In this document: positions 10,894-39,576 of the stretch, one piece after another
Numbering within the stretch: the stretch's first letter is position 1
How the letters are laid out: every line of letters begins with the position of its first letter
Assembly: GCA_944383925.1 (NCBI GenBank)
Contig: CALWRM010000061.1
Span: 1,432-65,431 of the forward strand
Reading direction: 5' to 3'
Length of the DNA: 64,000 nucleotides
Origin: an uncultured Clostridia bacterium
GTDB lineage: Bacteria > Bacillota > Clostridia > Christensenellales > UBA1750
The notes under the pieces: model-generated
What the model was told of the DNA's origin: nothing
The model's input: only the letters and a program-made list of their open reading frames with translations
Database searches by the model: none
Made by a program: the position numbers and the translations under genes

Positions 10894-10914
10894 GGCTTGC
10901 CTCCTTTCCGTCGT

Positions 10915-13900: not shown

Positions 13901-14652
13901 GCCAGCCCGCCCCACAGCAGGGGCCGCACGGGGATGCGGCGCCGTTGGGACAGGTCCTTGCTCCTGCTCATCCCATAGGCCGCCACGGCGGCAAAGGCCG
14001 CGCAAAGGAAGATGAAGGCCGGCGCCCAGTTGGCCTTGCCGCCCTCGTCCTCCTCCACGGCCGCCGCCACCTTTTTCAGGGACTGGGCCTGCGCGCCCTC
14101 GGGCAGGGCGTCCACCTTTTCCACGGACAGATCGTCAAACCAGGCCACGCCCTGGTTGGTCTCGCCGTAAAAGCCCGCCCGGGCGCAGATGGTGATGGAG
14201 CCCTGGAACCAAGCGGTGCGCCCGTAAAACTCCACGTACACCCATTCGCCGTCCGTATCGGCGTAATCGGCCGAGACGGCGAAGCAGTCCTTGACGGAGA
14301 GGTTCGCGCCCGTCTTTTCCGGATCGAAGCCCTCGGCCTTCAGATAGCCGGAGATCTTGTACAGGCTGTTGCCGCTCACCTGAATGGTCTGCTCCAGCCG
14401 GGCGTCGTTCTCCTTCTTGCTGTCGATGCAGAGCACCTCGCCGCGCTGGGGGTCCGTCTCCAGGCGGTACACGGTGGCCTCCGTGCCGCCCTCCCAGGCG
14501 TCGAAGGACCAGTGGCCGATGTAGCCATCCTCGTCCAGCCCGTCCTCAAAGCCGCCGTTGAGCAGCAGGTTCTCCCCCTGGGCCAGGGAGGGCACGGCCA
14601 GGCACAGCAACAGCAGCGCCAGGGCCAAGAAGCTTGCAAGTCTCCTGTTCAT
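10915..14652 (-). CDS. multidomain glycosyltransferase: signal peptide + CBM4/9-like domain + GT-C module 1 + discoidin-like domain + GT39 (PMT-like) GT-C module 2
   Basis: 1245 aa. NLLLNGGFEDG...W (CBM-like). GYEVDMNCFAGWA...DYPPGYLY (ALG6/COG5542-like first loop). Central beta-rich VVLDLGQERAVGRFYYYG...MKIFEVAV. YFDEVYHGRTAYE...THPPLGK (PMT/GT39 motif). More than 20 hydrophobic spans. Confidence 0.8.
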   Translation of the reverse strand: MNRRLASFLALALLLLCLAVPSLAQGENLLLNGGFEDGLDEDGYIGHWSFDAWEGGTEATVYRLETDPQRGEVLCIDSKKENDARLEQTIQVSGNSLYKISGYLKAEGFDPEKTGANLSVKDCFAVSADYADTDGEWVYVEFYGRTAWFQGSITICARAGFYGETNQGVAWFDDLSVEKVDALPEGAQAQSLKKVAAAVEEDEGGKANWAPAFIFLCAAFAAVAAYGMSRSKDLSQRRRIPVRPLLWGGLALALLLRMYLSVTVSGYEVDMNCFAGWAFSMASEGPAGIYEAVFCDYPPGYLYVLWLIGGLGNLFQLPYNSELFQLLLKLPASLADLATAYLIYRMAKEWTDEGLALVAALVYAFAPTVWLDSAMWGQMDSVLVLLVLLCIRYMLKKQMLKSSLLFTLAVLVKPQALMFGTVLLCGFASDVLENPKKGLQSLGISLVSALALVLLVAAPFSIGKGYGWLVEKYLQVLGSYPYATVNAMNLFGVLGGNWVDQSERLLGLSYASWGSIGMVLSVGYGLYLYFAAKDRRAVLPMAAMVLLGVFVLGVRMHERYLFPSLALVLLCALCYQDRRLLWVFAGLLVTNGANIFTVLQNEHILADNRTMQILVGCLNLLLMLEFGGVCFQLCVRHRSCPLVSELRPLGSQVLGPALPTADRSGERPRFTRWDLLLLSALTLVYGVTAFYRLGNTYAPSTLCQLDQGQSVVLDLGQERAVGRFYYYGEINYATLSVSFSKDGQSYSEEYVLEMGVHDMFKWHVITLSEEARYVRLEVSEGDMKIFEVAVTDGEGKTYEITAPQEAAALVDEQWMVPERPGYMDSMYFDEVYHGRTAYEQIHNMTWYENTHPPLGKVFISWSVLLFGMTPFGWRFAGTLAGVLMVPAIYYLAKLLFKKTGLAFAAAFLFTFDFMHLAQTRLGTIDSYPVLFIIMGFACMLHYAHMSFYHEKLGRTLVPLFFSGLFMGLGIASKWIGIYAGVGLAVFFFAILYSRFAQYRQAKRLLRQEGRSEQAVRAARNIVERFPRCALITLLCCVLFFVLIPLGIYIGSYYQFLRIEGNGLEEVWNYQLHMFNYHKAVFDSHPYESPWYQWPLMLRPIWYFLGEFEPEGSISSIASFGNPAVWWPGLAAILWLIVRAAKGYGRQDKRIYIVLLGYFANFLPWVLVPRTTFIYHYFASVPFLTMAIGLFLEDFYARAKRGKLWIGIYLGAVLALYCLFYPVLTGVSMPDVQGLLLEWLPSWTLF

Positions 14653-16508: not shown

Positions 16509-16669
16509 GGGCGTGTTTCTCCTCTCGCCCTTCCGGCCCGCCGGCGGGCGCAGGAAGGCTTTCTATACCTAATCTTACCAAAGAGGCGCGGCTTTACGCA
16601 AGACATGCGCACAAATTGCGGCGCGGCCCGGCGGGCAAGCGCAGGGCCGTCCCGCCGGGCCGCAAGCCC

Positions 16670-17368
16670 TTAGGCGATCTCGTTTTGGAAGGCCACCAGC
16701 GTGGCATCGTGCACGCCGGGGATGTTGAGCAGGGCGTCCACCAGGTTGGCGCGCTGCTGGGGCAGGCGCAGCTCGTAGGTGGCCTCCACCCCGCCGCGGG
16801 TGACGGTCTTGGACTTGAGCTTGGAGCGGGGCACCTTGTGCACCATGGCGGAGATGTCCTTGCCGGCCCGCTCGTCGTAATGGACCACCAACAGGTAGTT
16901 TTCGCCGGCCTTGTTTCCCACCAGGGAGACCAGGAAGAGCACCACGGCAATGACCAGCGTGCCGATGATGGCGTAGAGCATGTAGTTGGCGCCCACGGTG
17001 ATGCCCGCGGCGATGGCCCAGAACATGAACACGGTGTCCATGGGGTCCTTCACGGCGGTGCGGAAGCGCACGATGGACAGCGCGCCCACCATGCCCAGGG
17101 ACAGCCCGATGCTGGAGGAGATGCACATGATGATCATGGCGGTGACCATGGTGAGCATGATCAGGGAGATGTTGAAGCTGTGGCTGTAGAGCACACCCCG
17201 GTAGGTCTTCTTATACACATAGAAGATCAATAGGCCAAGGAGGAAGGCGCAGGCCAGGGAGAGCAACACGTTGGGCACGGTCAGGTTCTGGCGGCTGAGC
17301 GAGAAGCCCTCCAGTACCGAGTTTTTGAACAGATCGGTTGCGCTGAGCGATTGGTTGGCTTGTTCCAT
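16670..17368 (-). CDS. DUF4956 family membrane protein (module 1)
   Basis: 232 aa, about 4 TM spans then a soluble tail. GMVGALSIVRFRTAVKDPMDTVFMFWAIAAG is shared almost verbatim with the paralog at 36112-36783. AGGAGG lies 8 nt upstream. Confidence 0.8.
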   Translation of the reverse strand: MEQANQSLSATDLFKNSVLEGFSLSRQNLTVPNVLLSLACAFLLGLLIFYVYKKTYRGVLYSHSFNISLIMLTMVTAMIIMCISSSIGLSLGMVGALSIVRFRTAVKDPMDTVFMFWAIAAGITVGANYMLYAIIGTLVIAVVLFLVSLVGNKAGENYLLVVHYDERAGKDISAMVHKVPRSKLKSKTVTRGGVEATYELRLPQQRANLVDALLNIPGVHDATLVAFQNEIA

Positions 17369-17380
17369 GTTGGATGCCTC

Positions 17381-18091
17381 CTAAAGGTTGAATTCTAGCC
17401 GTCTGCAAAAGGTGTATTTGGAAATCGCGCTCCTTTGCGCGGGAATGGAGGAGAGCATGGGCCGGATGAACTCCGGAAAGCGGCGGTCGTACTTGACCTC
17501 CAAGATGACGGTCTCGTTGTGCAGGCAGGGGATGGTCGGCAGGTTCGCGTCGAAGAGGTCCGTGGAAAACAGGCCCGTGCGCAGCTGCTTGTCCAGGGTG
17601 ACGCGGGTGTTTTCCGCCGGATGGGTGTAGGCCTCGCGCACGTAATCCACCACCACCACGGGCTTGAGCAGCCGGGTGGTCATCTGGCGGAACATGTCCT
17701 GCAACAGGGGATGGCCCAGGCGTTCCAGGCCATAGGGATCGCCGGCGATGATCTGCTCGGCCAGGTCCCGGGACAGGGGCACGGACAGCTTGGAGATGTA
17801 GTCGCCCTTTTTCCGCTTGCGCTCCAGCATGATCACCCGGTCCGAGAGGTTGTAGATGCGGATGCGGTACTTATCCCTGTGTTGCACGCCGTCGATCTTG
17901 TCGGACATGGCGGTGTTGAAGCAGTCATCAAAGTACAGGGAGCGGATGTGGTATTCGCCGTATCGGTCGGCGTTTTCGTCGATCCACATGGTGCGGCCGA
18001 GCACCTGGGACAGATAGGCCGCCGACCCTTGGGAAATGTGGTATTTTTGCTCATGCCGCAGGGGCTCGGGCTGTTTCCTTTGCGGGGCCAT
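17381..18091 (-). CDS. VTC-domain (triphosphate tunnel, polyphosphate-polymerase-like) protein (module 1)
   Basis: 236 aa with no TM or signal peptide. HEQKYHIS, YHIRSLYFDD, DKYRIRIYN, LERKRKKGD, ILEVKYD and ISKYTFCR align with the paralog at 36840-37511 and with the Vtc4-type catalytic domain family. Confidence 0.85.
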   Translation of the reverse strand: MAPQRKQPEPLRHEQKYHISQGSAAYLSQVLGRTMWIDENADRYGEYHIRSLYFDDCFNTAMSDKIDGVQHRDKYRIRIYNLSDRVIMLERKRKKGDYISKLSVPLSRDLAEQIIAGDPYGLERLGHPLLQDMFRQMTTRLLKPVVVVDYVREAYTHPAENTRVTLDKQLRTGLFSTDLFDANLPTIPCLHNETVILEVKYDRRFPEFIRPMLSSIPAQRSAISKYTFCRRLEFNL

Positions 18092-18101
18092 GGCTTTCCT
18101 C

Positions 18102-21100
18102 CTAACCCTGCCAGAGCTCGCCGAAGAGCTCCGTCATCTTCTCGTCGCTCAGGCCGAACCAATCCTTCATGTGCTGCATCATGTAGCCCGTGCGGTTGTC
18201 GGCAAACTCGCGCAGGCGGTTCACATGCCTTTGCCAGGACTGAACGGAGCCATGGTCGGGCCAGCGCTCGTAATGGGCCTCCATCTCCGGGGCCATCTGG
18301 CTTTCCAGCTCCTCGATGGCGGCGTAGATGTTCTCCTTGGTGTACACCTCGCGCACGTAGTAGGCGCAGCGCTCGATGAACAGCTCCTCCATCTCCGGGT
18401 TTTCCAGCAGGCCGCGGATCAGGGAATTGTTGAAGCTGTCGTTGTAGCCGGTGCCGTTTTCGTTGAGCACGTGGAGGAAGCCGTCGCGCTTATAGCCGTT
18501 GGTTTCGCCCGTGTTGATGCCCCAATCCAAGTCGTAGAGGATCCATTTCCACTTGCCGCCGGGCACCTTGTAGTACTTGATGTTGCCGTTGTCGGAGTTG
18601 ACCCAGAAGATCTCGGCGATCTGGTAATCGAAGTAGTTGATGATGTCCACCCGGTCGGTGACGTACTTGAGGTTTTCCTCGTCCTTCAGGCTGTGGCTTT
18701 CCACAAAGTCGATCAGCTCCATGTACTCCTCGTTGGTGCCGTTGAGCACGCGGGCGGCCACGTTGCCGTTGCCCTTGAGCAGGTCGATGTTGTCGATTGC
18801 CGTCTCGTCCGTCACGCCCTCCCACTGGGCGATGGACCACTTGTTGACCCTTTCGCGCATGTTGTAGTGTCCCCAGTACTCGCCGTTTAAGTAGAGCACG
18901 CAGACCTCGGTTTCCTGGTACATCACGCCCTGGCCCTCCATCAGGGAGGTCATCATGGCGTCGCGCATGCGGGCGCGGTTGTAGTCCTGGGCCGTGCAGC
19001 GCAGCACGAAGGACTTATAGGAGTCGTAGTCCCGGTCGTCGAAGAGGGCGGCGTTGAAGCGGCTGTCGCCGTATTCCTTTCTGGCGTAGACCGCGAAGGA
19101 CTTCTGGTCCAGGGCCCTGGAATACTGGCCGTTGATCTTAAACTCGGCGCCCTGGGAGAGGAGGGTGGTGCCGTCCTCGTCGAAGATCTCCACATAGACC
19201 GGTCTCTCCCAGTCCATCCAGAAGTTGGCGCCGTAGCCGGGGGAGCCATGGGGAAACTCCTCCTGATAGCCGGGGCCGTCGGCGTAGATGCCCTTTTCGT
19301 CGGAGAAGAGGTTGTCCGGGTCCGTGGATAGGCAGACCACGCGCACGCTGTGGCTCTGGCCGATGATGTAGGTGCCCGTGGTGCTCAAGGGGCTTAAGTA
19401 CCCCTCCTTCACGGCCACGGCGCGCACCACGGTGGTGGAGGAGAGCTGGATGGGCCCGGTGTATGGGGTGCTGGAGACGCTGGGCTCGGTGCAGTCGGTG
19501 GTGTAGTAGATCTGGCTGCCGTCGGACACCGAAAGCTCCAGGCTGAGGCCCTCGTCATACAGGCCGGGGGCCAGAGAAAGGCTCACTTCCTGGGCCACGC
19601 CCACATAGCTTTCGCCCTGGTTGGGCTGGCCGGGGCTGGGCGTTGCGTAATAAAAAAGGCCGAGGTCGTCGCCCCTGCCGTAGGAGATGTCCGTTTGCAG
19701 CGCGGGCACGAGCAGCTTATCCACCATCTGGTCCTGGGCGTCGAACAGGTAGAGGATTTCGCCGGTGGAGCTGGCTCGAAAGGAGGTGCTGAGCTTCCCC
19801 GTCTCCGTGGAGTCCTCGCCCGTCAGGGCCACGACCATCCGCTCGCCGGGGGCCAAGCTCAGCTCCGGAAACTCGAAGCGCCGGGTTCTATCCGGGTTGT
19901 TGGAAAGTCCCCAGCCGCCCAGGTTGACGGTCTGGCCGGAGTTGTTGACGATCTCGGCGTAGTCCACGGCCTGGTCGTTCACCAGCGTCTCGCCCGCGGA
20001 GGAGAGCACCTCGGAGATGTAGACGCCCTGGTTGTTCAGGCGAAAGAAGTCGTCCAGCACGCTCAGGCCGTTTTCCGCCGTGTTGGCAAGGCCGGGGGTG
20101 GGGGCGTTGGTCTCCTGGTAGCCGCCGTCCTCCTGCCTGGCGTAGGCACAATCGTCCTTCAGCTCCGGCAGCTCCACCCGATCCAGCAGGTATCCCTGGG
20201 CGTCGCGCAGGCTGATGTTCTCCCCGCTGGCGGAGATGGCGAAGTTGGTGTGGAAGGTCTGGCCATCCTGGCTGTTTAGGTTGTCGCAATAGACCACCAG
20301 CATCTCGCCTGGGGCGATGGACCCGGAGGCAAAGCGCCACTGCATGGGTTCGTTGTCGTCGTCCGTGAGGGCATAGCCGCTCAGGTCGATGGTTTCCGTG
20401 CCCAGGTTGATCAGCTCGATCCAATCGGGGTAGGCGCCGTTTTCGTCGGCCAGGGTGCTGGCGTTGGAGGACTGGACCTCGTTGATCTTTAGGCTGCTTT
20501 GCGCCCGCAGGTCGAAGGAGGCCAGGTAGCTGTCGTGCCCCTCCTGGGTGTTGGGGTAGCCGGGGGAATAGAGGGTCGTCTCCTCAAAGCCGGTCTCCTG
20601 GTGGATGTAGGAGCTGTTGACGGCCGTCTGGGGCAGCTCCACCTGGTCGGCCAGGGAGGAGCCGTTGAACAGGTAGAGGGTCTCGCCGGCCTTGAGCCTA
20701 AAGCTGGCGTGTAGGGAGGCGGAGGCGGCGTTTCTGGACTTGCCGGAGAGATAGACCACCAGGTATTCGCCGCTGCCCAGCTCCATGCTGGGCAAGGGGA
20801 ACTTGGCGGGGTTGTCGCTGCGATCGGAAAGGGCGTAGCCGCTCAGGTTGATGGCCGCGGCGGTGCCGTTGTACAGCTCCACCCAATCCGGGTACTCCCC
20901 GTCGTCGTCCATCACGGCGCCCTCGTTGGCGATCATCACCTCGGAGATGATCAGCCCGGTGGTGGTCATTTCCAGCTGTCCGTCCGCGCCCTCGCCCACG
21001 CCGGCGATGGCCGGGGCCAGCTCCTTGTTGAGGGCATAGAACACAAAGGTGACGGTGATGGCCACCAGGAGCACTATGTTCAAGACCACCAGGCCTTTTC

Positions 21101-21107
21101 TCTTCAT
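18102..21107 (-). CDS. membrane-anchored CotH kinase family protein with three lamin-tail-like (LTD) repeats
   Basis: Trimmed to MKRKGLVVLNIVLLVAITVTFVFYAL (AGGAGGG upstream). Three repeats of the type EV..(N/S)...DWVELYN...L.GY.LSD. C-terminal CotH region SFVLRCTAQDYNRARMRD...LYLNGEYWGHYNMRERV. Confidence 0.85.
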   Translation of the reverse strand: MKRKGLVVLNIVLLVAITVTFVFYALNKELAPAIAGVGEGADGQLEMTTTGLIISEVMIANEGAVMDDDGEYPDWVELYNGTAAAINLSGYALSDRSDNPAKFPLPSMELGSGEYLVVYLSGKSRNAASASLHASFRLKAGETLYLFNGSSLADQVELPQTAVNSSYIHQETGFEETTLYSPGYPNTQEGHDSYLASFDLRAQSSLKINEVQSSNASTLADENGAYPDWIELINLGTETIDLSGYALTDDDNEPMQWRFASGSIAPGEMLVVYCDNLNSQDGQTFHTNFAISASGENISLRDAQGYLLDRVELPELKDDCAYARQEDGGYQETNAPTPGLANTAENGLSVLDDFFRLNNQGVYISEVLSSAGETLVNDQAVDYAEIVNNSGQTVNLGGWGLSNNPDRTRRFEFPELSLAPGERMVVALTGEDSTETGKLSTSFRASSTGEILYLFDAQDQMVDKLLVPALQTDISYGRGDDLGLFYYATPSPGQPNQGESYVGVAQEVSLSLAPGLYDEGLSLELSVSDGSQIYYTTDCTEPSVSSTPYTGPIQLSSTTVVRAVAVKEGYLSPLSTTGTYIIGQSHSVRVVCLSTDPDNLFSDEKGIYADGPGYQEEFPHGSPGYGANFWMDWERPVYVEIFDEDGTTLLSQGAEFKINGQYSRALDQKSFAVYARKEYGDSRFNAALFDDRDYDSYKSFVLRCTAQDYNRARMRDAMMTSLMEGQGVMYQETEVCVLYLNGEYWGHYNMRERVNKWSIAQWEGVTDETAIDNIDLLKGNGNVAARVLNGTNEEYMELIDFVESHSLKDEENLKYVTDRVDIINYFDYQIAEIFWVNSDNGNIKYYKVPGGKWKWILYDLDWGINTGETNGYKRDGFLHVLNENGTGYNDSFNNSLIRGLLENPEMEELFIERCAYYVREVYTKENIYAAIEELESQMAPEMEAHYERWPDHGSVQSWQRHVNRLREFADNRTGYMMQHMKDWFGLSDEKMTELFGELWQG

Positions 21108-21289
21108 GGAAACCCTCCTGTAAAATAGCACGCTTTCGCGCTTTTCCGCGCAGTTGTCAGTGTAACATAGCAACGGGCGAAATGCAAACACAATCCCCTA
21201 TATTGCGGCCATTTTCGCCCTTCCACCAGGGAAGACGAGTGATTTGGGGCAAAAGTTTCGCATTTTTCGCCGCGGTCCGCGGGTAAAAA

Positions 21290-22445
21290 AAGGCAGGGGC
21301 CGACGGGCGCCCGGCCCGCCGGCCCAACCCCCCCGGCGCGACCGGCACGGGAAGAGGGCCCAGCGGCCGGACAAAGGCGACGCACTTCGGCCCTTCCATA
21401 AAAAGGACCCGCAGGGCGCTTGGTCCCCGGGCCCCTTGCCTTGTTCCCCTCGCCCGCCATCCCAGCCGCCCGCGCCCGCTGGCAACGCCGCCTAGCCTCG
21501 GCGCGACAGGCGCGGGGAAGGGTTCCGCAGCCGGGCCGCTTCTTCCCTCCCTCTCCCGCCATCCCGGCCGCCCGCGCCCTTGCCAACAGGTTTGCGGGGG
21601 AAAGGGGCCCAGCGGCCGGGCAAAGGCGACGCCCCTCGACCCTTCCATAAAAAAGGACCCGCTGGGCGCTTGGCCCCCGGGTCCCTTGCCTTGTTCCCTT
21701 CGCCCGCCATCCCAGCCGCCCGCGCCCGCTGGCAACGCCGCCTAGCCTCGGCGCGACAGGCGCGGGGAAGGGTTCCGCAGCCGGGCCCCCTTTTTCCCTC
21801 CCGCGCACGCCAACCCGGCCGCCCGCGCCCGCTGGCGACGCTACCCCTATGCCACGGCGCGACCAGTGTGGGAAATAGGCCCCGCAGCCGGGCCGCTTCT
21901 TCCCTCCCTCTCCCGCCAACCCGGCCGCCCGCGCCCTTGCCAACAGGTTTGCGGGGGAAAGGGGCCCAGCGGCCGGACAAAGGCAACGCCCTTCGACCCT
22001 TCCATAAAAAAGGACCCGCAGGGCGCTTGGCCCCCGGGTCCTTTGCCTTGTTCCCTTCGCCCGCCATCCCAGCCGCCCGCGCCCGCTGGCGACGCTACCG
22101 CCATGCCGCGGCGCGGTCGGCGCAGGGAAAGGGCCCCGCAGCCGGGCCCCTTCTTCCCCCACCCGCCATCCCGGCCGTCCGCACCCTTGCCAACAGGTTT
22201 CGCAAGGAAAGGGTTCCAGCGGCCGGACAAAGGCGACGCCCTTCGGCCCTTCCATAAAAAGGGCCCGCTGGGCGCTTGGCCCCCGGGTCCCTTGCCTTGT
22301 TCCCCCACCCGCCAACCCAGCCGCCCGCGCCCTTGCCAACAGGTTTCGCGGGGAAAGGGGCCCAGCGGCCGGACAAAGGCAACGCCCTTCGGCCCTTCTA
22401 CAAAAAAGGACCCGAAGGGCGCTTGGCCCTCCGGGTCTCATCCTC
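21290..22445. repeat. tandem array B: mosaic of two module types (about 103 bp and about 147 bp), at least 8 modules
   Basis: The anchor CCCGCCA(T/A)CCC(A/G)GCCGCCCGCGCCC recurs at about 21452, 21556, 21701, 21800, 21913, 22060, 22160 and 22307. It is followed either by GCTGGC..GGCGCGGGGAAGGGTTCCGCAGCCGGGCC or by TTGCCAACAGGTTT..GGCCGGACAAAGGCGACGCCCTTCGGCC..ATAAAAAAGGACCCGC..GGGTCC. Confidence 0.85.
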
Positions 22446-34079: not shown

Positions 34080-36095
34080 TCATACGCGCTTTGGATAGAA
34101 GAAGGCCACCAAAATGCCGGCCAGCAGCACCGCCGCGCAGATGCCCGTCAGCGCCCAGCCTTCCCCGCTCCCGGCGCTGGAGGCGGCGTTCCCGCCCGAG
34201 GAGACGTCGAAGCCCCCCTCAAACGAGCCGCGGCCGCCGCCGCCCTCGGGCGGTTCCATGGCCTGGCCGCCGTCCCCGGGCGCTTGCCCGGACGACGTCT
34301 CCTCGCCGCTCAGGGTTTGCCAGCGGCCGCCCCCGCCGGGCCCGCCGCCCGGCTGCCCAAAGCCCGTGGCCAGGGTCTCCCCGGCTTGGGATTCGCTTCC
34401 CTCGCCCTGGTCCTCCCCGGCCTGGTCTTCCCAGTCCTGGTCCTTCCGGCCGCCCTGGCCGCGGTCCATTCCGCCGCCCATGCCGCCCATGTCGGAAATG
34501 TTCAGGTCGGAGGCGTCCACCAGCTGGCTATCCGCCTGTTGCTGGCCCTCGGAGCTGGAGGGGACGGTCCCCTCCAGCTGGCCCCGAACGCTCTGGGCGC
34601 GCAGCTGGCAAAACTCCACCAGGGTGTCAAAGCCCGTCTCAAACTCCTCGTAGCTGCAGAACTTGGTGGGGTCCTTTTCCACATACGGGGCGATGAGCTC
34701 GTAGGTCTGCTGCATCATCTCCTCGAAATAGCCGCTCTCAAAGTAGCTTTCAAGGAAGTCGGAGAAGTACTGGTGGTAGAGCTGGGTGTACTCCTCGTCC
34801 GAGAAGATCCAGGCCAGCATGGGTCTGGAATCCACCGAGCCGCCGGAAACGGGGGTGTCGATGGGGTAATTGACCAGCGAGGTGGCGTCCTGGGCGCCCA
34901 TGAAGCCGCCAAAGGCCAGGTTATAGTCCCAGGGGATCATGGAGAGGGCGCCGTCCTCCTCGTAGAGGTAGTAGTTGTGGATCATGGAGCCGGTGTAGCT
35001 GTCGAAGTTGCACACGAAGTTGTGCACCACGAAGTAACGGATCACCTCGTCCATGTCCAGCACCTGCTCCAGGTTTTGCTGCTCGTTCAGCTGGCGCAGG
35101 GAGTCGATGAGCCTTTCCTTGTCGGCGTCGGTGATGTCGGTCTTGGCGTTGTCAAAGATGTTGGCGTAGCTGTCGTAGTCCTCGTCGCTGTAAATCAGGG
35201 ACACGTCCGTTGAACCCATGCCGCCAAAGCCGCCCCAGCCGCCGCCAAAGTTGGCAAAGTCCTCCATCGCTTCCAAACCCTCGAAACCTTCGAAACCTTC
35301 AAAACCCTCGAAGCCGCCTTCGCCGGGCGGCGTTCCGCCGTCTGGCAAATCCGTTGGAGTTATAGGGCCTTCGTCTTGGCCCTGGTCCTGCCCGTCCTGC
35401 TCCTCCTGGCCGTCCTGGGCGTCCTGCCGCCACTGGTCCATGTCGAAGTCGCGGCCGTTGCCCCGGCCGCCGCCCATGCTGATGCTGTCCGGCTTATAGA
35501 GCTGGCCGTAATCGTTCCCGTAGTTGCGCTGGAGGAAGGCCTCCTCCACGCCCTCCACCGCCAGATACAGCCCAAAATCCTGGCCGTTGACCGTGACATA
35601 CACGAAGCTGCACAGAGGGGCGTCCACGCCAAAGGCGTTCATCATTTGGTAGCTAAGGTAGTCCTTCATGTAGGTATTGTCCTGGATGAGGTTGTTGAGG
35701 CAGAGCTTATCCAAGCCGTGGTAGCTGATGGCGCTATCGTAATGGTCAAACTCGATCTTAAAGCTGTAGCGGTCGTTCCCGTAGCTGGCCACCTGGGTCA
35801 GGGAGGTGTTGCCCTTGGCCCGGATGGCCACGTTGCTATAGGTTTCCTGGTCGATGACCACGGTGCACAGGGCGTACTCCTCCGAGGTGCAGGTTTCCAG
35901 GAAGCCTTCCCAATCGTCCATCCGGATGTCGATGGTGTGCACGGTGCTGGTGTCAAACAGCCTGGACTCATAGCCCATGGTTCTGGAGGCGGCCTGAACG
36001 CCCAGGCTCTCGGCGTTCATGAACAGCACGGTGATGACCAGCGTGGCCGCCAGGACGAGGTAGCAAATTCGATCGATGGCCTTGTGCGTGGACAT
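34080..36095 (-). CDS. CotH kinase family protein with N- and C-terminal membrane anchors (module 2)
   Basis: Start set at MSTHKAIDRICYLVLAATLVITVLF (GGAGG 8 nt upstream). CotH core RYSFKIEFDHY...CLNNLIQDNTYMKDYLSY...VTVNGQDFGLYLAVE. Internal acidic insert containing GFEGFEGFEGFEG. Gly/Glu/Gln-rich tail, then the TM span LTGICAAVLLAGILVAFFY. Confidence 0.85.
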   Translation of the reverse strand: MSTHKAIDRICYLVLAATLVITVLFMNAESLGVQAASRTMGYESRLFDTSTVHTIDIRMDDWEGFLETCTSEEYALCTVVIDQETYSNVAIRAKGNTSLTQVASYGNDRYSFKIEFDHYDSAISYHGLDKLCLNNLIQDNTYMKDYLSYQMMNAFGVDAPLCSFVYVTVNGQDFGLYLAVEGVEEAFLQRNYGNDYGQLYKPDSISMGGGRGNGRDFDMDQWRQDAQDGQEEQDGQDQGQDEGPITPTDLPDGGTPPGEGGFEGFEGFEGFEGLEAMEDFANFGGGWGGFGGMGSTDVSLIYSDEDYDSYANIFDNAKTDITDADKERLIDSLRQLNEQQNLEQVLDMDEVIRYFVVHNFVCNFDSYTGSMIHNYYLYEEDGALSMIPWDYNLAFGGFMGAQDATSLVNYPIDTPVSGGSVDSRPMLAWIFSDEEYTQLYHQYFSDFLESYFESGYFEEMMQQTYELIAPYVEKDPTKFCSYEEFETGFDTLVEFCQLRAQSVRGQLEGTVPSSSEGQQQADSQLVDASDLNISDMGGMGGGMDRGQGGRKDQDWEDQAGEDQGEGSESQAGETLATGFGQPGGGPGGGGRWQTLSGEETSSGQAPGDGGQAMEPPEGGGGRGSFEGGFDVSSGGNAASSAGSGEGWALTGICAAVLLAGILVAFFYPKRV

Positions 36096-36111
36096 GGATG
36101 GCACCTCCGGC

Positions 36112-36783
36112 TCAGCCCGTATAGTCGCCGTTGTAGCTGACCAGCACGGCGCTGGAGACGCCGTTCATCTCCGAGAGGATGTTGACAAAGTCGGTGTTGT
36201 CGTCCCGCATGCGCACCTCCACGTTCAGCTCCACGGCGCCCTGCTGGGTGGTCATGCTCTTGACCACGCAGCGATCCACCTGCTTTTTCAAAAACTCGGT
36301 GGCGGCCAGCTCGCTGTCGTGGTTTTCGCAGCGCAGCACCACGATGTAGGGCTTGGTGTGGGCCTTGCGGTTGGCGAAGACCAGCAGCACGATGCCGATG
36401 GCCACGCTGCCGAACACCGCCAGGGGAAACAATCCGGCGGCCAGCACGATGCCCGCGGCGATGGCCCAAAAGAGGAAGGCGATGTCCATGGGTTCCTTGA
36501 TGGCCGTGCGAAAGCGCACGATGGAAAGGGCGCCCACCATGCCCAGGGACAGCACCACGTTGGAGGTGACCGCCAGGATGACGAAGGTGGAGATCATGGT
36601 CAGGGCCACCAGCGTGACCCCAAAGCCGGCCGAATACATCACGCCGGAAAAGGTCTTCTTATAGATGAGGAAGATGAACAGCCCGATGCCAAAGGCCAGA
36701 ACCAGCGCCAGGGCCATATCCAGGAAGGACACGCTCGCGATGTTTTCTAAAAAGCTGGACTTGAAGATGTCGTTGAAGGTCAT
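36112..36783 (-). CDS. DUF4956 family membrane protein (module 2)
   Basis: C-terminal 223 codons of ORF 36112..37245, starting MTFNDIFKSSFLENI. GMVGALSIVRFRTAIKEPMDIAFLFWAIAAG. Paralog of 16670-17368. Confidence 0.85.
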   Translation of the reverse strand: MTFNDIFKSSFLENIASVSFLDMALALVLAFGIGLFIFLIYKKTFSGVMYSAGFGVTLVALTMISTFVILAVTSNVVLSLGMVGALSIVRFRTAIKEPMDIAFLFWAIAAGIVLAAGLFPLAVFGSVAIGIVLLVFANRKAHTKPYIVVLRCENHDSELAATEFLKKQVDRCVVKSMTTQQGAVELNVEVRMRDDNTDFVNILSEMNGVSSAVLVSYNGDYTG

Positions 36784-36839
36784 GGTCTTGAAAGCTCCTT
36801 TTCTTCGTTTTTCGTGGGGGTTTGCCCGTCTTCCTCTGC

Positions 36840-37511
36840 CTAGTCGTAGACGCGGCAGGCGGCGTATTTGGAGAAGGCGGCGGTGTGGCTTTGGGGGATC
36901 TGCACGATGTCCCGCACGATGGAGGGCAAAAAGCTGTCCCATTTGACCTCCAGCACGATGGGTGCGTCCCGCGCGGGGATGGTGACGCAGCGCGGGTTGA
37001 GAAAGTCGGTGCAGCCTAGGCCCGTGCGGATGTTGTAATCCAGCGTGACCCGCACGTTGCCGGGGCCAAAGACGAAGGGCTCGCGGGTGTAGTCCACGAT
37101 GGTGCGGGGCCGCAGCCCTTGGGAGAGCATCTTTCGCCGCAGCTCCTGCACCAGGGGATCCTGCGCGCCCTCCAGGGCCTGGGGGTCGCCCAGCGCCAGC
37201 GCCCGGGCTCGCCTCTCCTCCAGCCTCGCCTGCTCCTTGGCGCAAAGGCCGTTGATCTTGCGCTTCTTCTCCAGCAGCAGCAGGGACGTGTCGCCGTTGT
37301 AGTAGCGGATGCGGAACTTTTCCCGGTTGTTCACCCCGTCGATCTTCTCGCGCAGGGCCTTATCCTGCAGGTTGTCGAAGTAGAGGCTGCGGATCTCATA
37401 CCGGCCGTCGATGGCGTGGCTGTCCCGGCGCATCACCGCCGCCAGCCGGGGCCGCAGGGCCAGCAGATCGCCGTAGGCGATTTCGTGCTTCCATTCATAT
37501 CGAAAATCCAT
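36840..37511 (-). CDS. VTC-domain (polyphosphate-polymerase-like) protein (module 2)
   Basis: Trimmed to MDFRYEWKHEIAYGD. YEIRSLYFDN, EKFRIRYYN, LEKKRKINGL, VLEVKWD, FSKYAACR. AGGAGGAG upstream. Confidence 0.85.
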   Translation of the reverse strand: MDFRYEWKHEIAYGDLLALRPRLAAVMRRDSHAIDGRYEIRSLYFDNLQDKALREKIDGVNNREKFRIRYYNGDTSLLLLEKKRKINGLCAKEQARLEERRARALALGDPQALEGAQDPLVQELRRKMLSQGLRPRTIVDYTREPFVFGPGNVRVTLDYNIRTGLGCTDFLNPRCVTIPARDAPIVLEVKWDSFLPSIVRDIVQIPQSHTAAFSKYAACRVYD

Positions 37512-37563
37512 GCCCGTTTTTCTGCTCCTCCTTTCCAGGCGTCTGGTCGCGTTCACGGGCTTT

Positions 37564-37597
37564 AGCATAGCCCACCAACCTTAGAACAAACTTAGAA
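37564..37597 (-). promoter_or_regulatory. candidate response-regulator-dependent promoter (pho-box-like direct repeat plus -10)
   Basis: Minus strand TTCTAAG-TTTG-TTCTAAG (37597-37591 and 37586-37580, 11-bp period), then 10 nt, then TATGCT (37569-37564). No recognisable -35. The -10 lies about 50 nt upstream of the VTC ATG. Confidence 0.45.
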
Positions 37598-37604
37598 AGA
37601 AGAA

Positions 37605-37633
37605 GGAGATCCACAACAAAATTGTGAATCTCC
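37605..37633 (-). terminator. hairpin terminator after the histidine kinase gene
   Basis: Minus strand GGAGATTCACAATTTTGTTGTGGATCTCC followed by TTCTTCTTTCT. Confidence 0.55.
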
Positions 37634-37661
37634 TATAAACAAATTATGAATGCCCCGCGCT

Positions 37662-38906
37662 TTACAGTCGAAGTTTGAAAATGATTCTGGAATTTTGTCC
37701 ATATTCCGCATCGAGCCTTCCGCCGTTGGCCTGCGCGAGGGCCCGGGCGATCGACAGCCCGATGCCGTACCCCCCGTCCTTCTGGTTTCTGGCGTCGTCC
37801 CCCCGGTAGAAGCGCTCGAACAGCTTCTCCGGCTCGGCGTCGGGCAGCTTCGCGCAGCTGTTTTCCAGCCGCAGCAGCGCGCCGCCCTCCCCTTTGGAAA
37901 GCTCCACCAGGATCTGGCCGCCCTGGTCGGCGTGCTTGACCGCGTTGTCCAGCAGGAGGGAGAGCAGCTGCTCCAGCTGGGCCCTGTCCGCGCGCACCCG
38001 CAGCCCCGGCTCCAGCTGGGCTTGCAGCCGCAAGCCCCTTTGCTCCATGGCCTCCGCATAGCCCTCCAGCGTCCGCTCCACCAGCTCGTCCAGGCGCAGC
38101 TCCGTGGGATGGGGCTGGGCCGCTCCCTCGTCCATGCGGGCCAGGGCCAGCAGGTTCTGCATCAGCCCGGCCAGGCGCACGGTCTGCTCGCGGATGTTGC
38201 GGCTCCACTTGTTTTCCCCGTTGTACAACTCCATGGCCTCCACGTTGGCCTGGATGATGGCCAGGGGGGTTTTGATCTCGTGGCCGGCGTTGGTCACGAA
38301 GCGGCGCTGCCGTTCCATGTTCTGGGCGATGGGGCGGATGGCCCGCTTGGACATTAGGCTCACCAGCAGCAGCATCAGCCCCCAACAGGCCAACCCCACG
38401 CCGCAGGAAAGCAGCAGCACCCGCACGAAGGAGCGCCGCTCCCAGGAGGTATCCAGGAACACCGCAAAGCTCCCCTCGCCCTGGGCGCTGGGCGCCAGGC
38501 GGAAGCGGAAGTCCCCGCGGCGGCCGGAGGAAAGGCCCTGGTCGTAGGCCTCCTGGGCCCATTGCAGGGCCTGCTCCCGGCTCACCTGGGAGGTGCGGCT
38601 GACGTCCGCCCGCACGGCCGCGCCCTCCTCGTCGAAGCGCACCACGAAGAAGTTGGAGGCCATGAAGGTGTCGTAGGCATTTGGGGGAGCGCTCCAGGCC
38701 GGCTCGTGCGGCGGCAGAAACGCCGGCGCGCCGGTCAGCTTGCCGGCGTCGCCCTCGCTGCGGGTGAGGATCTCCAATGTCTGCTCGATCTGCCCGCCCA
38801 CCAGGGCGATGTTGGCGGCGTTGATGGCGCCAAGCAGCAGCAGGATCAGCACGCTCACGGCCAGCATGGAGATCCACAGGAACTTCCTCTGCAAGGTCCT
38901 AATCAT
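37662..38906 (-). CDS. sensor histidine kinase (two TM spans, about 130-aa extracytoplasmic loop, HisKA + HATPase_c)
   Basis: 414 aa. H-box FVTNAGHEIKTPLAII, N-box LLDNAVKH, G-boxes GGYGIGLSIA. Confidence 0.9.
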   Translation of the reverse strand: MIRTLQRKFLWISMLAVSVLILLLLGAINAANIALVGGQIEQTLEILTRSEGDAGKLTGAPAFLPPHEPAWSAPPNAYDTFMASNFFVVRFDEEGAAVRADVSRTSQVSREQALQWAQEAYDQGLSSGRRGDFRFRLAPSAQGEGSFAVFLDTSWERRSFVRVLLLSCGVGLACWGLMLLLVSLMSKRAIRPIAQNMERQRRFVTNAGHEIKTPLAIIQANVEAMELYNGENKWSRNIREQTVRLAGLMQNLLALARMDEGAAQPHPTELRLDELVERTLEGYAEAMEQRGLRLQAQLEPGLRVRADRAQLEQLLSLLLDNAVKHADQGGQILVELSKGEGGALLRLENSCAKLPDAEPEKLFERFYRGDDARNQKDGGYGIGLSIARALAQANGGRLDAEYGQNSRIIFKLRL

Positions 38907-39576
38907 CCGCCACCTCCAGGGTATAGCCCACGTTCCGCTTGGCCGCGATGCGCACCTTGCTCCGCAGGGCGGTCAACCGCTTGCGCAGATAGGAGATGTA
39001 GACCCACACCGTGCCAAGCTCCGCCTGGGTGTCGTAGCCCCACACCTTGCACAGCAGGTCCTCGGTGGACAGGTAGATGCCCCGGTTGAGCATCAGCAGC
39101 TCCATCAGCTGAAACTCCAGCTTGGGCAGCAGGAAGCTCCGGCCGTTGCCGGACAGCTCATAGCTGCTCCTGTTGAGGGAAAGGTCGCCGCAGCACAGCA
39201 CGTCGGGGGTAAAGGCCTCCCGGCGGCGCAGCAGGGCGCGCACCCTGGCCAGCAGCAGCTGCATGGAAAAGGGCTTGGGCAGGTAATCGTCCGCGCCCAG
39301 ATCCAGGCCCTGGATCTGGTCCTCCACCTCCGCCTTGGCCGTGAGCAGCAGCACGGGCGTGCGGCAGCCGGCCGCCCGCAGCCGGCGGAGCACCTCCAGC
39401 CCGCTCAGGCCCGGCATCATGATGTCCAGGATGATGCCGTCGTAGCGCTCCGCCTGGGCGAAGGCCAGGGCGTCGGTTCCGTTGTACACCGCGTCCACGA
39501 TGTATTTGTGGTAGCTCAGGATGTCCACCACCGCCTCGGACATGCTCCGCTCGTCCTCTGCGTAGAGCAGCTTCAT
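38899..39576 (-). CDS. OmpR/PhoB-family response regulator
   Basis: 225 aa. Receiver domain (DGIILDIMMPGLSG, LLLTAK) plus a winged-helix output domain (VWVYISYLRKRL...VGYTL). Overlaps the kinase gene by 8 nt. Confidence 0.92.
   Translation of the reverse strand: MKLLYAEDERSMSEAVVDILSYHKYIVDAVYNGTDALAFAQAERYDGIILDIMMPGLSGLEVLRRLRAAGCRTPVLLLTAKAEVEDQIQGLDLGADDYLPKPFSMQLLLARVRALLRRREAFTPDVLCCGDLSLNRSSYELSGNGRSFLLPKLEFQLMELLMLNRGIYLSTEDLLCKVWGYDTQAELGTVWVYISYLRKRLTALRSKVRIAAKRNVGYTLEVADD

Follow-up and report, generated by a model that had tools for sequence, protein, structure and literature searches.

What brings a CotH-family kinase, a VTC polyphosphate-polymerase-like protein and a DUF4956 membrane protein together in three contiguous minus-strand genes? 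The trio lies in a 64,000-nucleotide stretch of DNA (the window) from a gut Clostridia bacterium. CotH is regarded as a bacterial relative of the Fam20 fold, and the eukaryotic secretory-pathway kinases Fam20C, Fam20B and POMK act outside the cytoplasm, in a compartment where they phosphorylate proteins or glycans. In eukaryotes, ATP is imported into the Golgi/ER lumen, whereas no comparable supply exists at the surface of a bacterium; a polyphosphate (polyP) hypothesis, put forward in an earlier note on this DNA, aims to fill that gap. If it is true, a phosphate polymer carried across the membrane would power chemistry outside the cell. Our tentative preference, with a probability of roughly 0.38, is that this self-contained, translationally coupled operon encodes a three-part envelope machine in which polyP made by VTC would reach CotH via DUF4956.

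The CotH gene starts at ATG 21107, with AGGAGGG 5′ of the start, and ends in TAG (18104-18102), 10 nt before the VTC ATG (18091); VTC ends in TAG (17383-17381), 12 nt before the DUF4956 ATG (17368). AGGAGG overlaps the upstream stop codon at both junctions, and these motifs together with the ORF coordinates confirm the tight spacing and the separate SD motif of each gene that had been described. The ORF could be extended to 21191 from a GTG, which is improbable as the real start of CotH. The 5′ boundary of the operon is set by the intrinsic terminator of the upstream transcription unit, the final copy of a repeat array (Table 1). A sigma-70 consensus scan returned 0 sites, and the weak candidate promoter did not pass it. 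The hairpin at the 3′ end is probably the operon terminator, with a weak U-tract; its loop of more than 8 nt kept it from being called in the terminator scan. The flanks in the window are housekeeping genes (recR, rny, recA, cinA and an rbgA-like gene), and from 8.8 to 40.3 kb the window has neither pel genes nor DUF4832.

Table 1. Features of the CotH/VTC/DUF4956 operon and of the second module, in window positions.
Feature	Position	Strand	Evidence
Intrinsic terminator of upstream transcription unit	21297..21325	-	12-bp stem, 11 GC pairs, then CTGCCTTTTT
Weak candidate promoter (TTGCAT, 17 nt, TACACT)	21159..21187	-	By-eye reading of sequence
CotH-family kinase, 1001 aa, predicted outward-facing	18102..21107	-	Pfam; N-terminal hydrophobic segment; conserved catalytic Asp
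CotH N-terminal TM anchor/signal segment (~aa 5-27)	21027..21095	-	Hydrophobic segment after MKRKG
Three LTD (lamin-tail-type) repeats, ~aa 70-520, approximate bounds	19548..20900	-	PF00932, 3 stretches, E 4e-47
CotH kinase domain, aa 657-976	18180..19139	-	PF08757, E 8e-46, profile positions 2-322 of 322
Soluble Vtc4-like triphosphate tunnel enzyme (VTC), 236 aa	17381..18091	-	PF09359 1e-36; profile and model matches to Vtc4
DUF4956 membrane protein, 232 aa, distantly MgtC-like	16670..17368	-	PF16316 1.8e-12; model; conservation
GC-rich hairpin immediately 3′ of DUF4956 stop	16625..16661	-	-48.9 kcal/mol, z = -3.25, 0/200 shuffles as stable
Paralogous second CotH/VTC/DUF4956 module	34080..39576	-	VTC and DUF4956 identity to module 1
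Module 2 response regulator	38899-39576	-	
Module 2 histidine kinase	37662-38906	-	
Module 2 VTC	36840-37568	-	
Module 2 DUF4956	36112-36783	-	
Module 2 CotH, N- and C-terminal TM anchors	34080-36104	-	Topology analysis

The window carries a second module of the same kind, whose VTC and DUF4956 proteins each share 38% identity with the corresponding module-1 protein. Two diverged yet complete sets in one window suggest partner-specific complexes. An OmpR-type two-component system accompanies loci of the module-2 type.

The earlier note knew of no experimental description of the trio, which proved wrong. cotH, a poly-phosphate polymerase gene and DUF4956, with or without DUF4832, are conserved together as accessory genes in pel operons of Gram-positive bacteria (Whitfield et al. 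2020, PMC7112168), and all three genes (SIR_1594, SIR_1593 and SIR_1592) have been deleted in Streptococcus intermedius (mBio 2025, PMC12345266). Knockouts of CotH and DUF4956 altered Pel levels and aggregation there, with Pel raised in the DUF4956 mutant and lowered in the CotH mutant, and no change was reported for the mutant of VTC, both of whose neighbours gave a phenotype (PMC12345266). The same study states that the trio was not found outside pel loci. The published and window trios comprise the same three families, contiguous and co-oriented, with a CotH predicted to be secreted in the one and outward-facing in the other, and the pel-locus DUF4956 is described as combining an MgtC-like TM domain with an ACT domain, an architecture like that of the window protein. 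They differ in that the window CotH carries three Ig-like LTD repeats and CHB_HEX_C whereas the pel-locus CotH has a C-terminal FN3 domain, and in that the window trio stands alone among housekeeping genes, without pel or DUF4832. Related trios are stand-alone in at least 33 of the 34 loci with a scanned same-strand upstream neighbour, which mostly encodes a CTP synthase or an SNF2 helicase. The trio as such is known from these papers, and its stand-alone form outside pel loci differs from the published description. Links to exopolysaccharide (EPS) genes recur elsewhere: in Paenibacillus, VTC and DUF4956 come after the gene for a fusion of PelG with CotH, the Pseudobutyrivibrio trio is linked to an EPS cluster, and a GT/HEAT cluster is common to the trio loci of Planococcus and C. 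perfringens NELoc-2. The literature searched held no paper testing polyP synthesis, translocation or polyP as a CotH donor.

Across genomes, the three families, whose co-occurrence the earlier note had proposed to survey, were found together far beyond chance, in varied gene orders and distant taxa. Of 80 independent species-level loci, 79 have DUF4956 directly beside VTC; in the remaining one the contig ends just past VTC. The genes of a locus, CotH included, lie on a single strand, the median gap between VTC and DUF4956 is 4 nt, and three gene orders occur. The pair is also adjacent in 6/6 diverse DUF4956-anchored contigs and in two plasmids from other families. Near-obligate adjacency on the same strand with so short a gap points to VTC and DUF4956 as obligate partners; the longer family members that were inspected included no fusion of the two. 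CotH adjoins this pair in 67 of the 80 loci, being kept beside it in 87% of informative loci and in all informative CotH2-type loci, and a CotH-anchored metagenome sample showed VTC-DUF4956-CotH in every one of the 68 loci whose upstream sequence was long enough. Ten clean loci and a Symbiobacteriaceae contig carry the pair without CotH, one Eubacterium contig has a Cthe_2159 carbohydrate-binding beta-helix protein as third gene in place of CotH, and at least one lipoprotein CotH has neither VTC nor DUF4956 within 7 kb. The pair and CotH therefore do not strictly depend on each other: the core of the module is the VTC-DUF4956 pair, with CotH frequent but not obligatory.

The CotH-free loci and the beta-helix replacement speak for an alternative in which VTC and DUF4956 export polyP as a surface or matrix polyanion (for instance a counter-ion for a cationic exopolysaccharide such as Pel, or a cation buffer), CotH acting separately as an ATP-dependent or non-catalytic surface protein or as the enzyme or adaptor by which the polymer is anchored. 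The EPS links fit it as well, and it draws on the same evidence of VTC polymerase-likeness as the three-part machine does. We consider it unlikely, given that it leaves a catalytically intact CotH unexplained in most informative loci, including every informative one of the CotH2 type, and that the S. intermedius VTC knockout had no reported aggregation phenotype (PMC12345266). The presence of the trio on two plasmids, and of a resolvase next to it in C. perfringens NELoc-2, could instead point to anti-phage defence or mobile-element cargo, with a CYTH/TTM enzyme and a membrane effector; PADLOC matched none of the three proteins, the flanks in the window and its relatives are housekeeping genes, and the arrangement is stable over 80 species-level genomes, which leaves this origin with a negligible share of the probability.

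Topology analysis of the VTC protein found zero hydrophobic segments, in agreement with the claim that it has neither signal peptide nor TM span. The best PDB match of its predicted model (pLDDT 90.8) is Vtc4 (Foldseek; TM 0.74, E 1.8e-14), against TM ~0.55 for the tripolyphosphatases ygiF and AtTTM3; as modelled, its fold is nearer to this yeast polyP polymerase than to any other solved TTM. The bacterial family profile matches Vtc4 at 1e-9 and aligns six of nine catalytic residues (K16, R76, R78, K92, Y150 and R152 with K200, R264, R266, K281, Y359 and R361). The invariant LEVK and SKY motifs are the probable counterparts of Vtc4 E426/K428 and S457/K458, where E426, S457 and K458 are mapped by motif order only; no match of the C-terminal sub-profile reached Vtc4. 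With these three placed in that way, the triphosphate-coordinating residues of Vtc4 are invariant in the bacterial family, and the SKY lysine falls, again by order only, at the K458 position that separates active Vtc4 from inactive Vtc2/3. Most tunnel-exit basic residues are retained, R12, R91/K92, R163 and K200 matching Vtc4 R196, R280/K281, R373 and K428. Conservation of the tunnel, which the earlier note had left to be checked, is thus borne out by profile alignment and, for LEVK and SKY, by order. Hydrolytic TTMs have an acidic patch as second metal site, where Vtc4 has basic residues instead. The Vtc4-nearest fold, the Vtc4-type residues and the basic residues at the acidic-patch site make the VTC protein resemble a polymerase, and from sequence and model it is probably a polyP polymerase. 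One acidic-patch glutamate (E14) is retained where Vtc4 has threonine (T198), and the bacterial chemistry may therefore differ.

Among the closest known systems is the yeast VTC complex (Vtc4/Vtc3/Vtc1; PDB 3G3Q, 7YTJ, 8I6V), in which a polyP polymerase is coupled to a membrane channel. It shares with the window a homologous catalytic TTM domain (PF09359, with the profile and model scores above), the triphosphate-binding and most tunnel-exit residues, and the tie of the enzyme to a membrane protein. Apart from E14, the window differs in having VTC as a free protein without SPX or fused TM domain, and in a separate five-helix MgtC-like partner where yeast has a Vtc1/DUF202-type three-helix subunit.

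DUF4956 shows four clear hydrophobic segments by topology analysis, in keeping with the roughly four TM spans claimed, and its AlphaFold model (pLDDT 89) gives five membrane helices (aa 31-151), an amphipathic N-terminal helix and a cytoplasmic ACT-like domain (aa 156-227). Among 95 diverse members, G92, G95, R101, R103, K107 and G122 are invariant, and L89-I99, F102, A105, D111, F116 and W117 nearly so; the GALSIVRFRTA motif, called invariant before, is real, but only some of its positions are invariant and others nearly so. The membrane part has no structural match in the PDB, neither a Vtc1-type channel nor any transporter. Weak MgtC matches occur in 76 of the 95 members (best 1e-5), all below the Pfam gathering score. 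The MgtC/SapB/YhiD family (PF02308; C-terminal domain structure 7QA5) has a multi-helix membrane N-terminus and an ACT-like C-terminus in common with DUF4956, whereas GALSIVRFRTAxK is specific to DUF4956. Several DUF4956 members are named 'YhiD' by JGI. The proposed kinship with the eukaryotic VTC channel accordingly does not hold by descent: by sequence and model, DUF4956 is not homologous to yeast Vtc1 and would be an analogue at best.

MgtC proteins, the sole relatives of DUF4956, are known as regulators and not as channels, and act by binding other membrane proteins. We know of no pairing of an MgtC gene with a TTM enzyme. The missing PDB channel match and these regulatory relatives weigh against translocation. 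The weak MgtC matches, the common TM and ACT-like architecture and this mode of action of MgtC suit a regulatory module in which an MgtC-like DUF4956 and a VTC that hydrolyses or senses a triphosphate compound (PPPi, polyP or a nucleotide) or makes a signal tune exopolysaccharide synthesis or envelope physiology, with no polymer export and another donor for CotH. Retention of E14, the predominance of hydrolases and cyclases among characterised TTMs, the opposite shifts in Pel level on DUF4956 and CotH knockout (PMC12345266) and the two-component system of module-2-type loci agree with such a role. It nevertheless seems doubtful to us: the acidic patch of hydrolase and cyclase TTMs is largely replaced by Vtc4-type basic residues, the VTC fold is clearly nearer Vtc4 than the hydrolases, and the linkage to an outward-facing kinase is left without a reason.

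The single N-terminal hydrophobic segment of CotH, after MKRKG, predicts an N-in, C-out topology and therefore an outward kinase domain; a possible AIA|G cleavage site follows the segment. This topology prediction and the three PF00932 stretches uphold the earlier description of one anchor, three LTD repeats and an outward kinase, and Pfam adds a CHB_HEX_C_1/Fn3_assoc domain (5e-17). The kinase domain contains NSD (catalytic Asp D839) and YDLDWG, and both catalytic Asp columns, equivalent to B. subtilis D228 and D251, are invariant in eight diverse CotH proteins. The Bacillus CotH-CotB/CotG module (PDB 5JD9; PMC7821199) shares the atypical kinase fold family and both aspartates. The strong Pfam match and the clostridial host might suggest a Bacillus-like spore-coat role, CotH phosphorylating coat proteins in the mother cell beside incidental neighbours. 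Bacillus CotH, however, is short and soluble and works in the cytoplasm of the mother cell with ATP at hand, whereas the window protein is a predicted membrane-anchored ectoprotein that adjoins VTC and DUF4956, with no cotG-/cotB-like Ser-rich gene found adjacent. The sporulation-type CotH of Alicyclobacillus (363 aa) has neither N-terminal anchor nor Ig-like stalk, nor a VTC or DUF4956 neighbour, and streptococci and bifidobacteria, which do not form spores, have the trio too (PMC7112168), making the spore-coat role very improbable.

In the three-part machine that we prefer, the soluble Vtc4-type VTC would be located on the cytoplasmic face of the membrane, in contact with DUF4956, whose invariant R101/R103/K107 cluster would lie at the cytoplasmic membrane surface. 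VTC would transfer the γ-phosphate of ATP into polyP, and a DUF4956 oligomer would pass the chain, or its phosphoryl groups, outward. The anchored CotH, on a stalk of four Ig-like domains, would then use polyP to phosphorylate a surface protein or exopolysaccharide. In yeast VTC, a positively charged path joins the tunnel exit to the channel entrance, and the DUF4956 basic cluster could by analogy play that role. The analysis itself establishes the gene structure, the domains, the modelled fold, the conserved Vtc4-type and CotH residues, the predicted topology and the gene linkage; that VTC and DUF4956 form a complex, that VTC polymerises phosphate, that the product crosses the membrane, that CotH takes polyP as its donor, and what the substrate is, we infer. 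To our knowledge, no Fam20/CotH-type kinase uses polyP. The S. intermedius VTC knockout without reported phenotype weighs against this machine, as do the unseen fusion, the retained E14, the order-only mapping and the CotH-free loci. The polyP reading of the earlier note is, as a whole, partly supported, with the two diverged sets (38% identity), the EPS links and the effects of the CotH and DUF4956 knockouts on its side.

The CotH, VTC and DUF4956 genes of the window form a compact operon (module 1, the trio), and a second, diverged set of the same families lies elsewhere in the window (module 2). The G+C content of the window is ~65%, its closest relatives are uncultured Christensenellales/Clostridia gut MAGs, and all three ORFs of the trio show a strong third-position G+C bias (0.85-0.92). 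The intergenic gaps measure 10 and 12 nt, and at both junctions an AGGAGG overlaps the upstream stop codon, which suggests translational coupling of CotH, VTC and DUF4956. Because a terminator lies 5′ and a hairpin 3′ of the three genes, the trio constitutes a separate transcription unit. A sigma-70 consensus scan found no promoter site; by eye, the best candidate for the trio is the weak TTGCAT-17-TACACT. An Rfam search of the whole window yielded no family at gathering score, so there is no match to a riboswitch or leader RNA, and no NCBIfam model matched any of the three trio proteins. ORF and Pfam analyses bore out the coordinates, families and gaps recorded in the earlier note.

Features of the two CotH/VTC/DUF4956 modules and the signals bounding module 1 (window coordinates)
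Feature	Position	Strand	Details
CotH (module 1)	18102-21107	minus	1001 aa, counted from the ATG 3′ of AGGAGGG
VTC (module 1)	17381-18091	minus	236 aa
DUF4956 (module 1)	16670-17368	minus	232 aa
Terminator of upstream unit	21325-21297		12-bp stem
Hairpin 3′ of last trio stop codon			-48.9 kcal/mol, z = -3.25
VTC (module 2)	36840-37568		
DUF4956 (module 2)	36112-36783		
CotH2 (CotH of module 2)	34080-36104		N- and C-terminal TM anchors

The VTC protein matches PF09359 at 127.1 bits (cut-off 23), with residues 12-229 covering profile positions 2-230 of 235, and contains no hydrophobic segment, in agreement with the earlier claim that it lacks a signal peptide and TM span. Its AlphaFold model (pLDDT 90.8) has a closed beta-barrel tunnel fold for which Vtc4, the yeast polyP polymerase, is the nearest among triphosphate tunnel enzymes (TTMs): in a Foldseek search against the PDB, the top 12 matches were all Vtc4 or Vtc3 chains (TM up to 0.74, E 1.8e-14), against a TM of only ~0.55 for the hydrolase TTMs ygiF and AtTTM3, both tripolyphosphatases. 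Single-sequence PDB searches with VTC, CotH1 (the CotH of module 1) and DUF4956 gave nothing useful; a family profile was needed for Vtc4, and the profile of 24 bacterial VTC relatives reached the yeast protein at E 1e-9. Vtc4 residues K200, R264, R266, K281, Y359 and R361, which hold the triphosphate and are required for yeast polyP synthesis, align (HMMER) to K16, R76, R78, K92, Y150 and R152 of the window VTC, and these six are invariant in the 24 bacterial VTC sequences.

The HMMER alignment to Vtc4 ends at residue 172, leaving outside it the Mn-binding E426 and the catalytic S457/K458, the latter lysine separating Vtc4 from the inactive Vtc2/3; a sub-profile of the last 79 VTC residues had no match to Vtc4. 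Two invariant motifs, LEVK (E198, K200) and SKY (S224, K225), follow an order that fits Vtc4 E426/K428 and S457/K458, and from this order we infer that they are the counterparts of E426, S457 and K458. In hydrolytic and cyclase TTMs an acidic patch binds a second, catalytic metal, whereas Vtc4 is basic there and guides the growing chain out (Martinez et al.). Among the tunnel-exit residues named in a cryo-EM study of Vtc4 (R196, R280, K281, K294, K300, R373, K428), R196, R280/K281 and R373 align to R12, R91/K92 and R163 of the window VTC, and its K200 is, by motif, probably the counterpart of K428. One acidic-patch glutamate is kept as E14 where Vtc4 has T198, and the predicted acidic-patch and exit signature is mostly Vtc4-like, favouring a place among the polymerases of the TTM family, without being identical to that of Vtc4. 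The conservation of tunnel residues expected in the earlier note was thus found, in all six triphosphate residues and in most of the exit basics. Unlike the eukaryotic complex, which has SPX regulatory domains, the window VTC consists of the TTM domain alone.

DUF4956 matches PF16316 at 47.7 bits (cut-off 30.6) and has all of the family-invariant residues G92, G95, R101, R103, K107 and G122. Its AlphaFold model (pLDDT 89.2, pTM 0.79) comprises an amphipathic N-terminal helix, membrane-region helices at 31-55, 63-83, 87-103, 109-126 and 130-151, and a C-terminal beta-alpha-beta-beta-alpha-beta domain (156-227). An N-out, C-in topology is suggested by the charge of the loops and by the lack of a signal sequence for the C-terminal domain; in this orientation R101, R103 and K107, all invariant, would lie at the cytoplasmic face. 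In Foldseek, the C-terminal domain alone was matched, by ACT/ferredoxin-like folds including the C-terminal domain of MgtC (7QA5); the membrane part had no match in the PDB, to a known channel or transporter or otherwise. The window protein scored 13.9 bits against MgtC (PF02308), below the cut-off of 31.4; sub-threshold MgtC matches recurred in 76/95 DUF4956 relatives, and several members are annotated ‘YhiD’ by JGI. DUF202, the family of the three-helix Vtc1-type channel subunits that the eukaryotic complex has and the window set lacks, is not among the 25 listed of the 92 Pfam families matched by 95 DUF4956 members (E<=1). Given the ACT-like match, the recurrent weak MgtC matches and the YhiD labels, we regard DUF4956 as a distant relative of MgtC, outside the MgtC family itself and not kin to the Vtc1 channel, with conduction as a putative role only. 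A counterpart of the eukaryotic translocase, as the earlier note had proposed, it is not by descent, since no Vtc1/DUF202 likeness was found in the PDB search or among the Pfam families listed. One main rival explanation holds the trio to be a purely regulatory MgtC-like module.

A melibiose-permease match to DUF4956 (E 0.06) was weak and was discarded as hydrophobic-segment noise. The longer DUF4956 proteins checked included no VTC-DUF4956 fusion, and a DUF4956-citrate synthase chimera, seen in one protein, is probably an artefact. In Bacteroides thetaiotaomicron, a DUF4956 gene is reported in the literature beside a DUF2490 gene in one iron-responsive unit (BT3498-BT3499); by comparison with this pair, an outer-membrane partner of DUF4956 in diderms is possible.

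CotH matches PF08757 at 157.5 bits (cut-off 23.8) over profile positions 2-322 of 322, and Pfam places a CHB_HEX_C/Fn3_assoc domain between its three LTD repeats and its CotH domain. The MKRKG start and hydrophobic N-terminus predict an outward-facing ectodomain; Pfam and topology prediction therefore agree with the single N-terminal anchor, three LTD repeats and outward CotH domain described earlier. An alignment of eight diverse CotH proteins, that of the window included, has two Asp columns without variation. These columns correspond to B. subtilis D228 (catalytic) and D251 (metal-binding), positions whose mutation inactivates the kinase, as read from the alignment of CotH2 to B. cereus CotH 5JD9, which was reached with CotH2, not CotH1, as query. 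In the window CotH, D839 (NSD) is 100% conserved among 47 relatives, and the second catalytic Asp lies in YDLDWG, at D859 or D861 (one MAFFT run shifted by 2 residues). The Bacillus spore-coat CotH is soluble and has CotB/CotG as substrates, whereas the window CotH, anchored at its N-terminus and bearing an Ig-like stalk, does not fit this setting, and no Ser-rich coat gene lies near the trio.

We propose that a Vtc4-type polymerase would dock onto the MgtC-like membrane protein DUF4956, that this pair would move polyP, or phosphoryl groups, outward, and that the outward-facing CotH kinase would spend them on a surface protein or exopolysaccharide. Anatomy and linkage are what we observed, and the chain goes beyond them in assuming that a complex forms, that VTC polymerises, that its product is translocated and that CotH takes it as donor; we consider this full chain the best-supported reading, with a probability of about 0.4. 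It retains the earlier idea of a polyP synthase/exporter feeding an extracytoplasmic CotH kinase in so far as co-occurrence, Vtc4-type residues and a predicted outward CotH favour it; DUF4956 would be at best an analogue of the eukaryotic channel, and the absence of prior description had to be given up. The stronger proposition, that VTC-DUF4956 is a third, hitherto unrecognised class of bacterial polyP synthase, export-coupled and supplying phosphoryl groups or energy to extracytoplasmic CotH-family kinases, we hold to be rather unlikely.

To determine how closely the three families are linked, we scanned species-representative genomes for VTC-anchored loci (n = 80, 51-83% identity). DUF4956 adjoins VTC in 79/80, the remaining contig stopping 195 bp past VTC, always on the same strand and with a median gap of 4 nt; CotH adjoins in 67/80, so that the co-occurrence suggested in the earlier note holds. 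CotH-DUF-VTC is the commonest order, CotH-VTC-DUF occurs in the window and its nearest relatives, and DUF-VTC stands alone in 10 loci. In related loci, SNF2 helicase or CTP synthase genes are the usual neighbours on the upstream side, which indicates that the trio is widespread as a stand-alone operon. A CotH-anchored metagenome scan (80 loci, 46-76% identity to CotH2), run with a four-sequence alignment as an eight-sequence diverse one was too divergent, returned complete VTC-DUF-CotH sets in 68/80, nine loci cut within or before DUF4956, three with CotH at the contig edge and no informative exception. Both 80-locus samples are phylogenetically narrow, with breadth coming from smaller samples and the literature: VTC was adjacent in all six diverse DUF4956-anchored contigs (6/6), and the trio also sits on two plasmids from other families, once inside an EPS cluster and once as VTC-DUF-CotH-hyp-HEAT-GT, an arrangement also found in C. 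perfringens NELoc-2. At the protein level, the window VTC draws ~6,500 matches at E<=1e-5, counted as 90%-identity cluster representatives, and DUF4956 draws ~6,000 at E<=0.001, counted as 50%-identity clusters. Neither a Paenibacillus cellulosilyticus lipoprotein CotH (within 7 kb) nor a short sporulation-type CotH of Alicyclobacillus has VTC or DUF4956 as neighbours. PADLOC matched none of the trio proteins, and a defence system identity was rejected on this ground.

The survey identifies the VTC-DUF4956 pair as the invariant core of the module. The 10 CotH-less loci (L027, L028, L030, L034, L035, L046, L047, L051, L062, L074) are of Christensenellales type with ample flanks, and have no CotH within 10 kb of the pair. 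A TRAM-domain RNA methyltransferase gene comes next and a MATE transporter gene further on, with an M20 peptidase gene between the two in some loci; the pair is evidently able to function without CotH. Such loci bear on the other main rival, in which polyP is exported as a matrix polyanion without serving CotH as donor; the 67 loci with an adjoining CotH speak against it. In four loci (L052, L067, L068, L070), two or three tandem ~1,000-aa CotH genes lie 5′ of a single DUF4956-VTC pair, and one pair may thus serve several CotH enzymes.

For donor use by CotH, the DUF4956-anchored contigs are informative about the target. Two of the six encode a PelG-CotH fusion of ~1,035 aa, followed by VTC and DUF4956 inside a pel operon (L083 5150-8269, Paenibacillus beijingensis CP011058; L085 5168-8269, a metagenome). 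As PelG is the Pel export component, the fusion is a Rosetta-stone link of CotH to polysaccharide export and added evidence that CotH acts at the export site; together with the recurrent EPS context, it makes a polysaccharide or its export machinery the likely target of CotH. Two further contigs carry a two-component system with VTC-DUF-CotH, resembling module 2, and one has the pair alone. In the sixth, a Eubacterium sp. metagenome contig, a Cthe_2159-family beta-helix protein (PF14262; L086 9679-11475) follows VTC-DUF4956 in place of CotH, with an N-terminal anchor (HIDIICVVVLVLTLLITVLFMN) and a C-terminal anchor closely like those of CotH2. It may thus be through these common anchors that docking to the VTC-DUF4956 pair takes place. 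A jackhmmer match of this protein to CotH probably reflects the terminal anchors rather than a kinase domain, as Pfam lists PF14262 only.

Module 2 (34080-39576) has the order RR-HK-VTC-DUF4956-CotH, where RR is a response regulator of OmpR type and HK a histidine kinase, both upstream of the three genes, and its VTC and DUF4956 are each 38% identical to those of module 1. That two whole sets are retained, and not a single synthase serving both kinases, is consistent with complexes specific to each partner or with separate regulation. Besides its terminal anchors, CotH2 has an acidic, Gly-rich, low-complexity tail, and the VTC-DUF4956-CotH arrangement is near-universal among CotH2-like metagenome genes.

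The trio itself is not new to the literature, contrary to the earlier note, which knew of no experimental description. Whitfield et al. 2020 (PMC7112168) described cotH, a poly-phosphate polymerase gene and DUF4956 as conserved accessory genes beside pelDEADAFG, also with DUF4832 or DGC/PDE, in streptococci, clostridia and bifidobacteria. A 2025 study of S. intermedius (PMC12345266) deleted all three: Pel rose in the strain lacking DUF4956 and fell in the one lacking CotH, aggregation in sputum medium was halved in both mutants, and the VTC mutant had no reported change. Its authors noted that phosphate metabolism might be involved and stated that they had not encountered the trio except in pel loci, a restriction that our survey corrects. 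Our literature search found no paper testing a bacterial VTC enzyme, DUF4956 transport or polyP-dependent CotH. The window genes are contiguous and co-oriented as in the Gram-positive pel module; there, however, the trio is contiguous with pelDEADAFG, whereas here it lies among housekeeping genes (recR, rny, recA, cinA, pgsA, an rbgA-like GTPase gene and yraN). A scan of all genes at 8853-40266 found no PelF, PelG, PelA, PelD or DUF4832 and no other pel gene, and a pel/EPS context was rejected for this locus. The window locus is a stand-alone, LTD-stalked version of an already described trio, and its novelty is limited accordingly.

In recent papers on VTC, polyP synthesis in bacteria is assigned to PPK1/2, and VTC is presented as an invention of eukaryotes. 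The bacterial VTC family challenges this PPK1/2-only view, with Vtc4-type active-site residues invariant in 24 aligned relatives and near-constant pairing with DUF4956. If true, the proposed chain would give outward-facing CotH kinases a phosphoryl donor where ATP is absent, and an export-coupled synthase class would let thousands of bacteria, Gram-positive and other, phosphorylate surface proteins or exopolysaccharides outside the cytoplasmic membrane without ATP. The mechanism would also matter for the chemistry of biofilm matrices, given that the trio is linked to loci for Pel and further exopolysaccharides, and for a virulence-associated locus of C. perfringens.

Two further regions lie near the operon. 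Downstream by 2 kb, past the rbgA-like and yraN genes, a 1245-aa GT-C-type protein (PMT, PMT_2, PMT_4TMC, GT87; weak F5/8 type C) and a GtrA-family gene occupy 10483-14652; they were excluded as operon members because a hairpin and two housekeeping genes intervene. Between recR and the operon lies a non-coding repeat array of ~1.1 kb (21300-22440); an ORF within it (21492-22067, 191 aa) was rejected as a gene, having no Pfam match. Within composite units of ~146, 250 and 357 nt, a 56-nt core (GGGAAAGGGGCCCAGCGGCCGGACAAAGGCGACGCCCTTCGGCCCTTCCATAAAAA) occurs five times in the array, with no further copy elsewhere in the window and no Rfam gathering-score match there. Each core is terminator-like on the minus strand, where a GC hairpin precedes a T-run.
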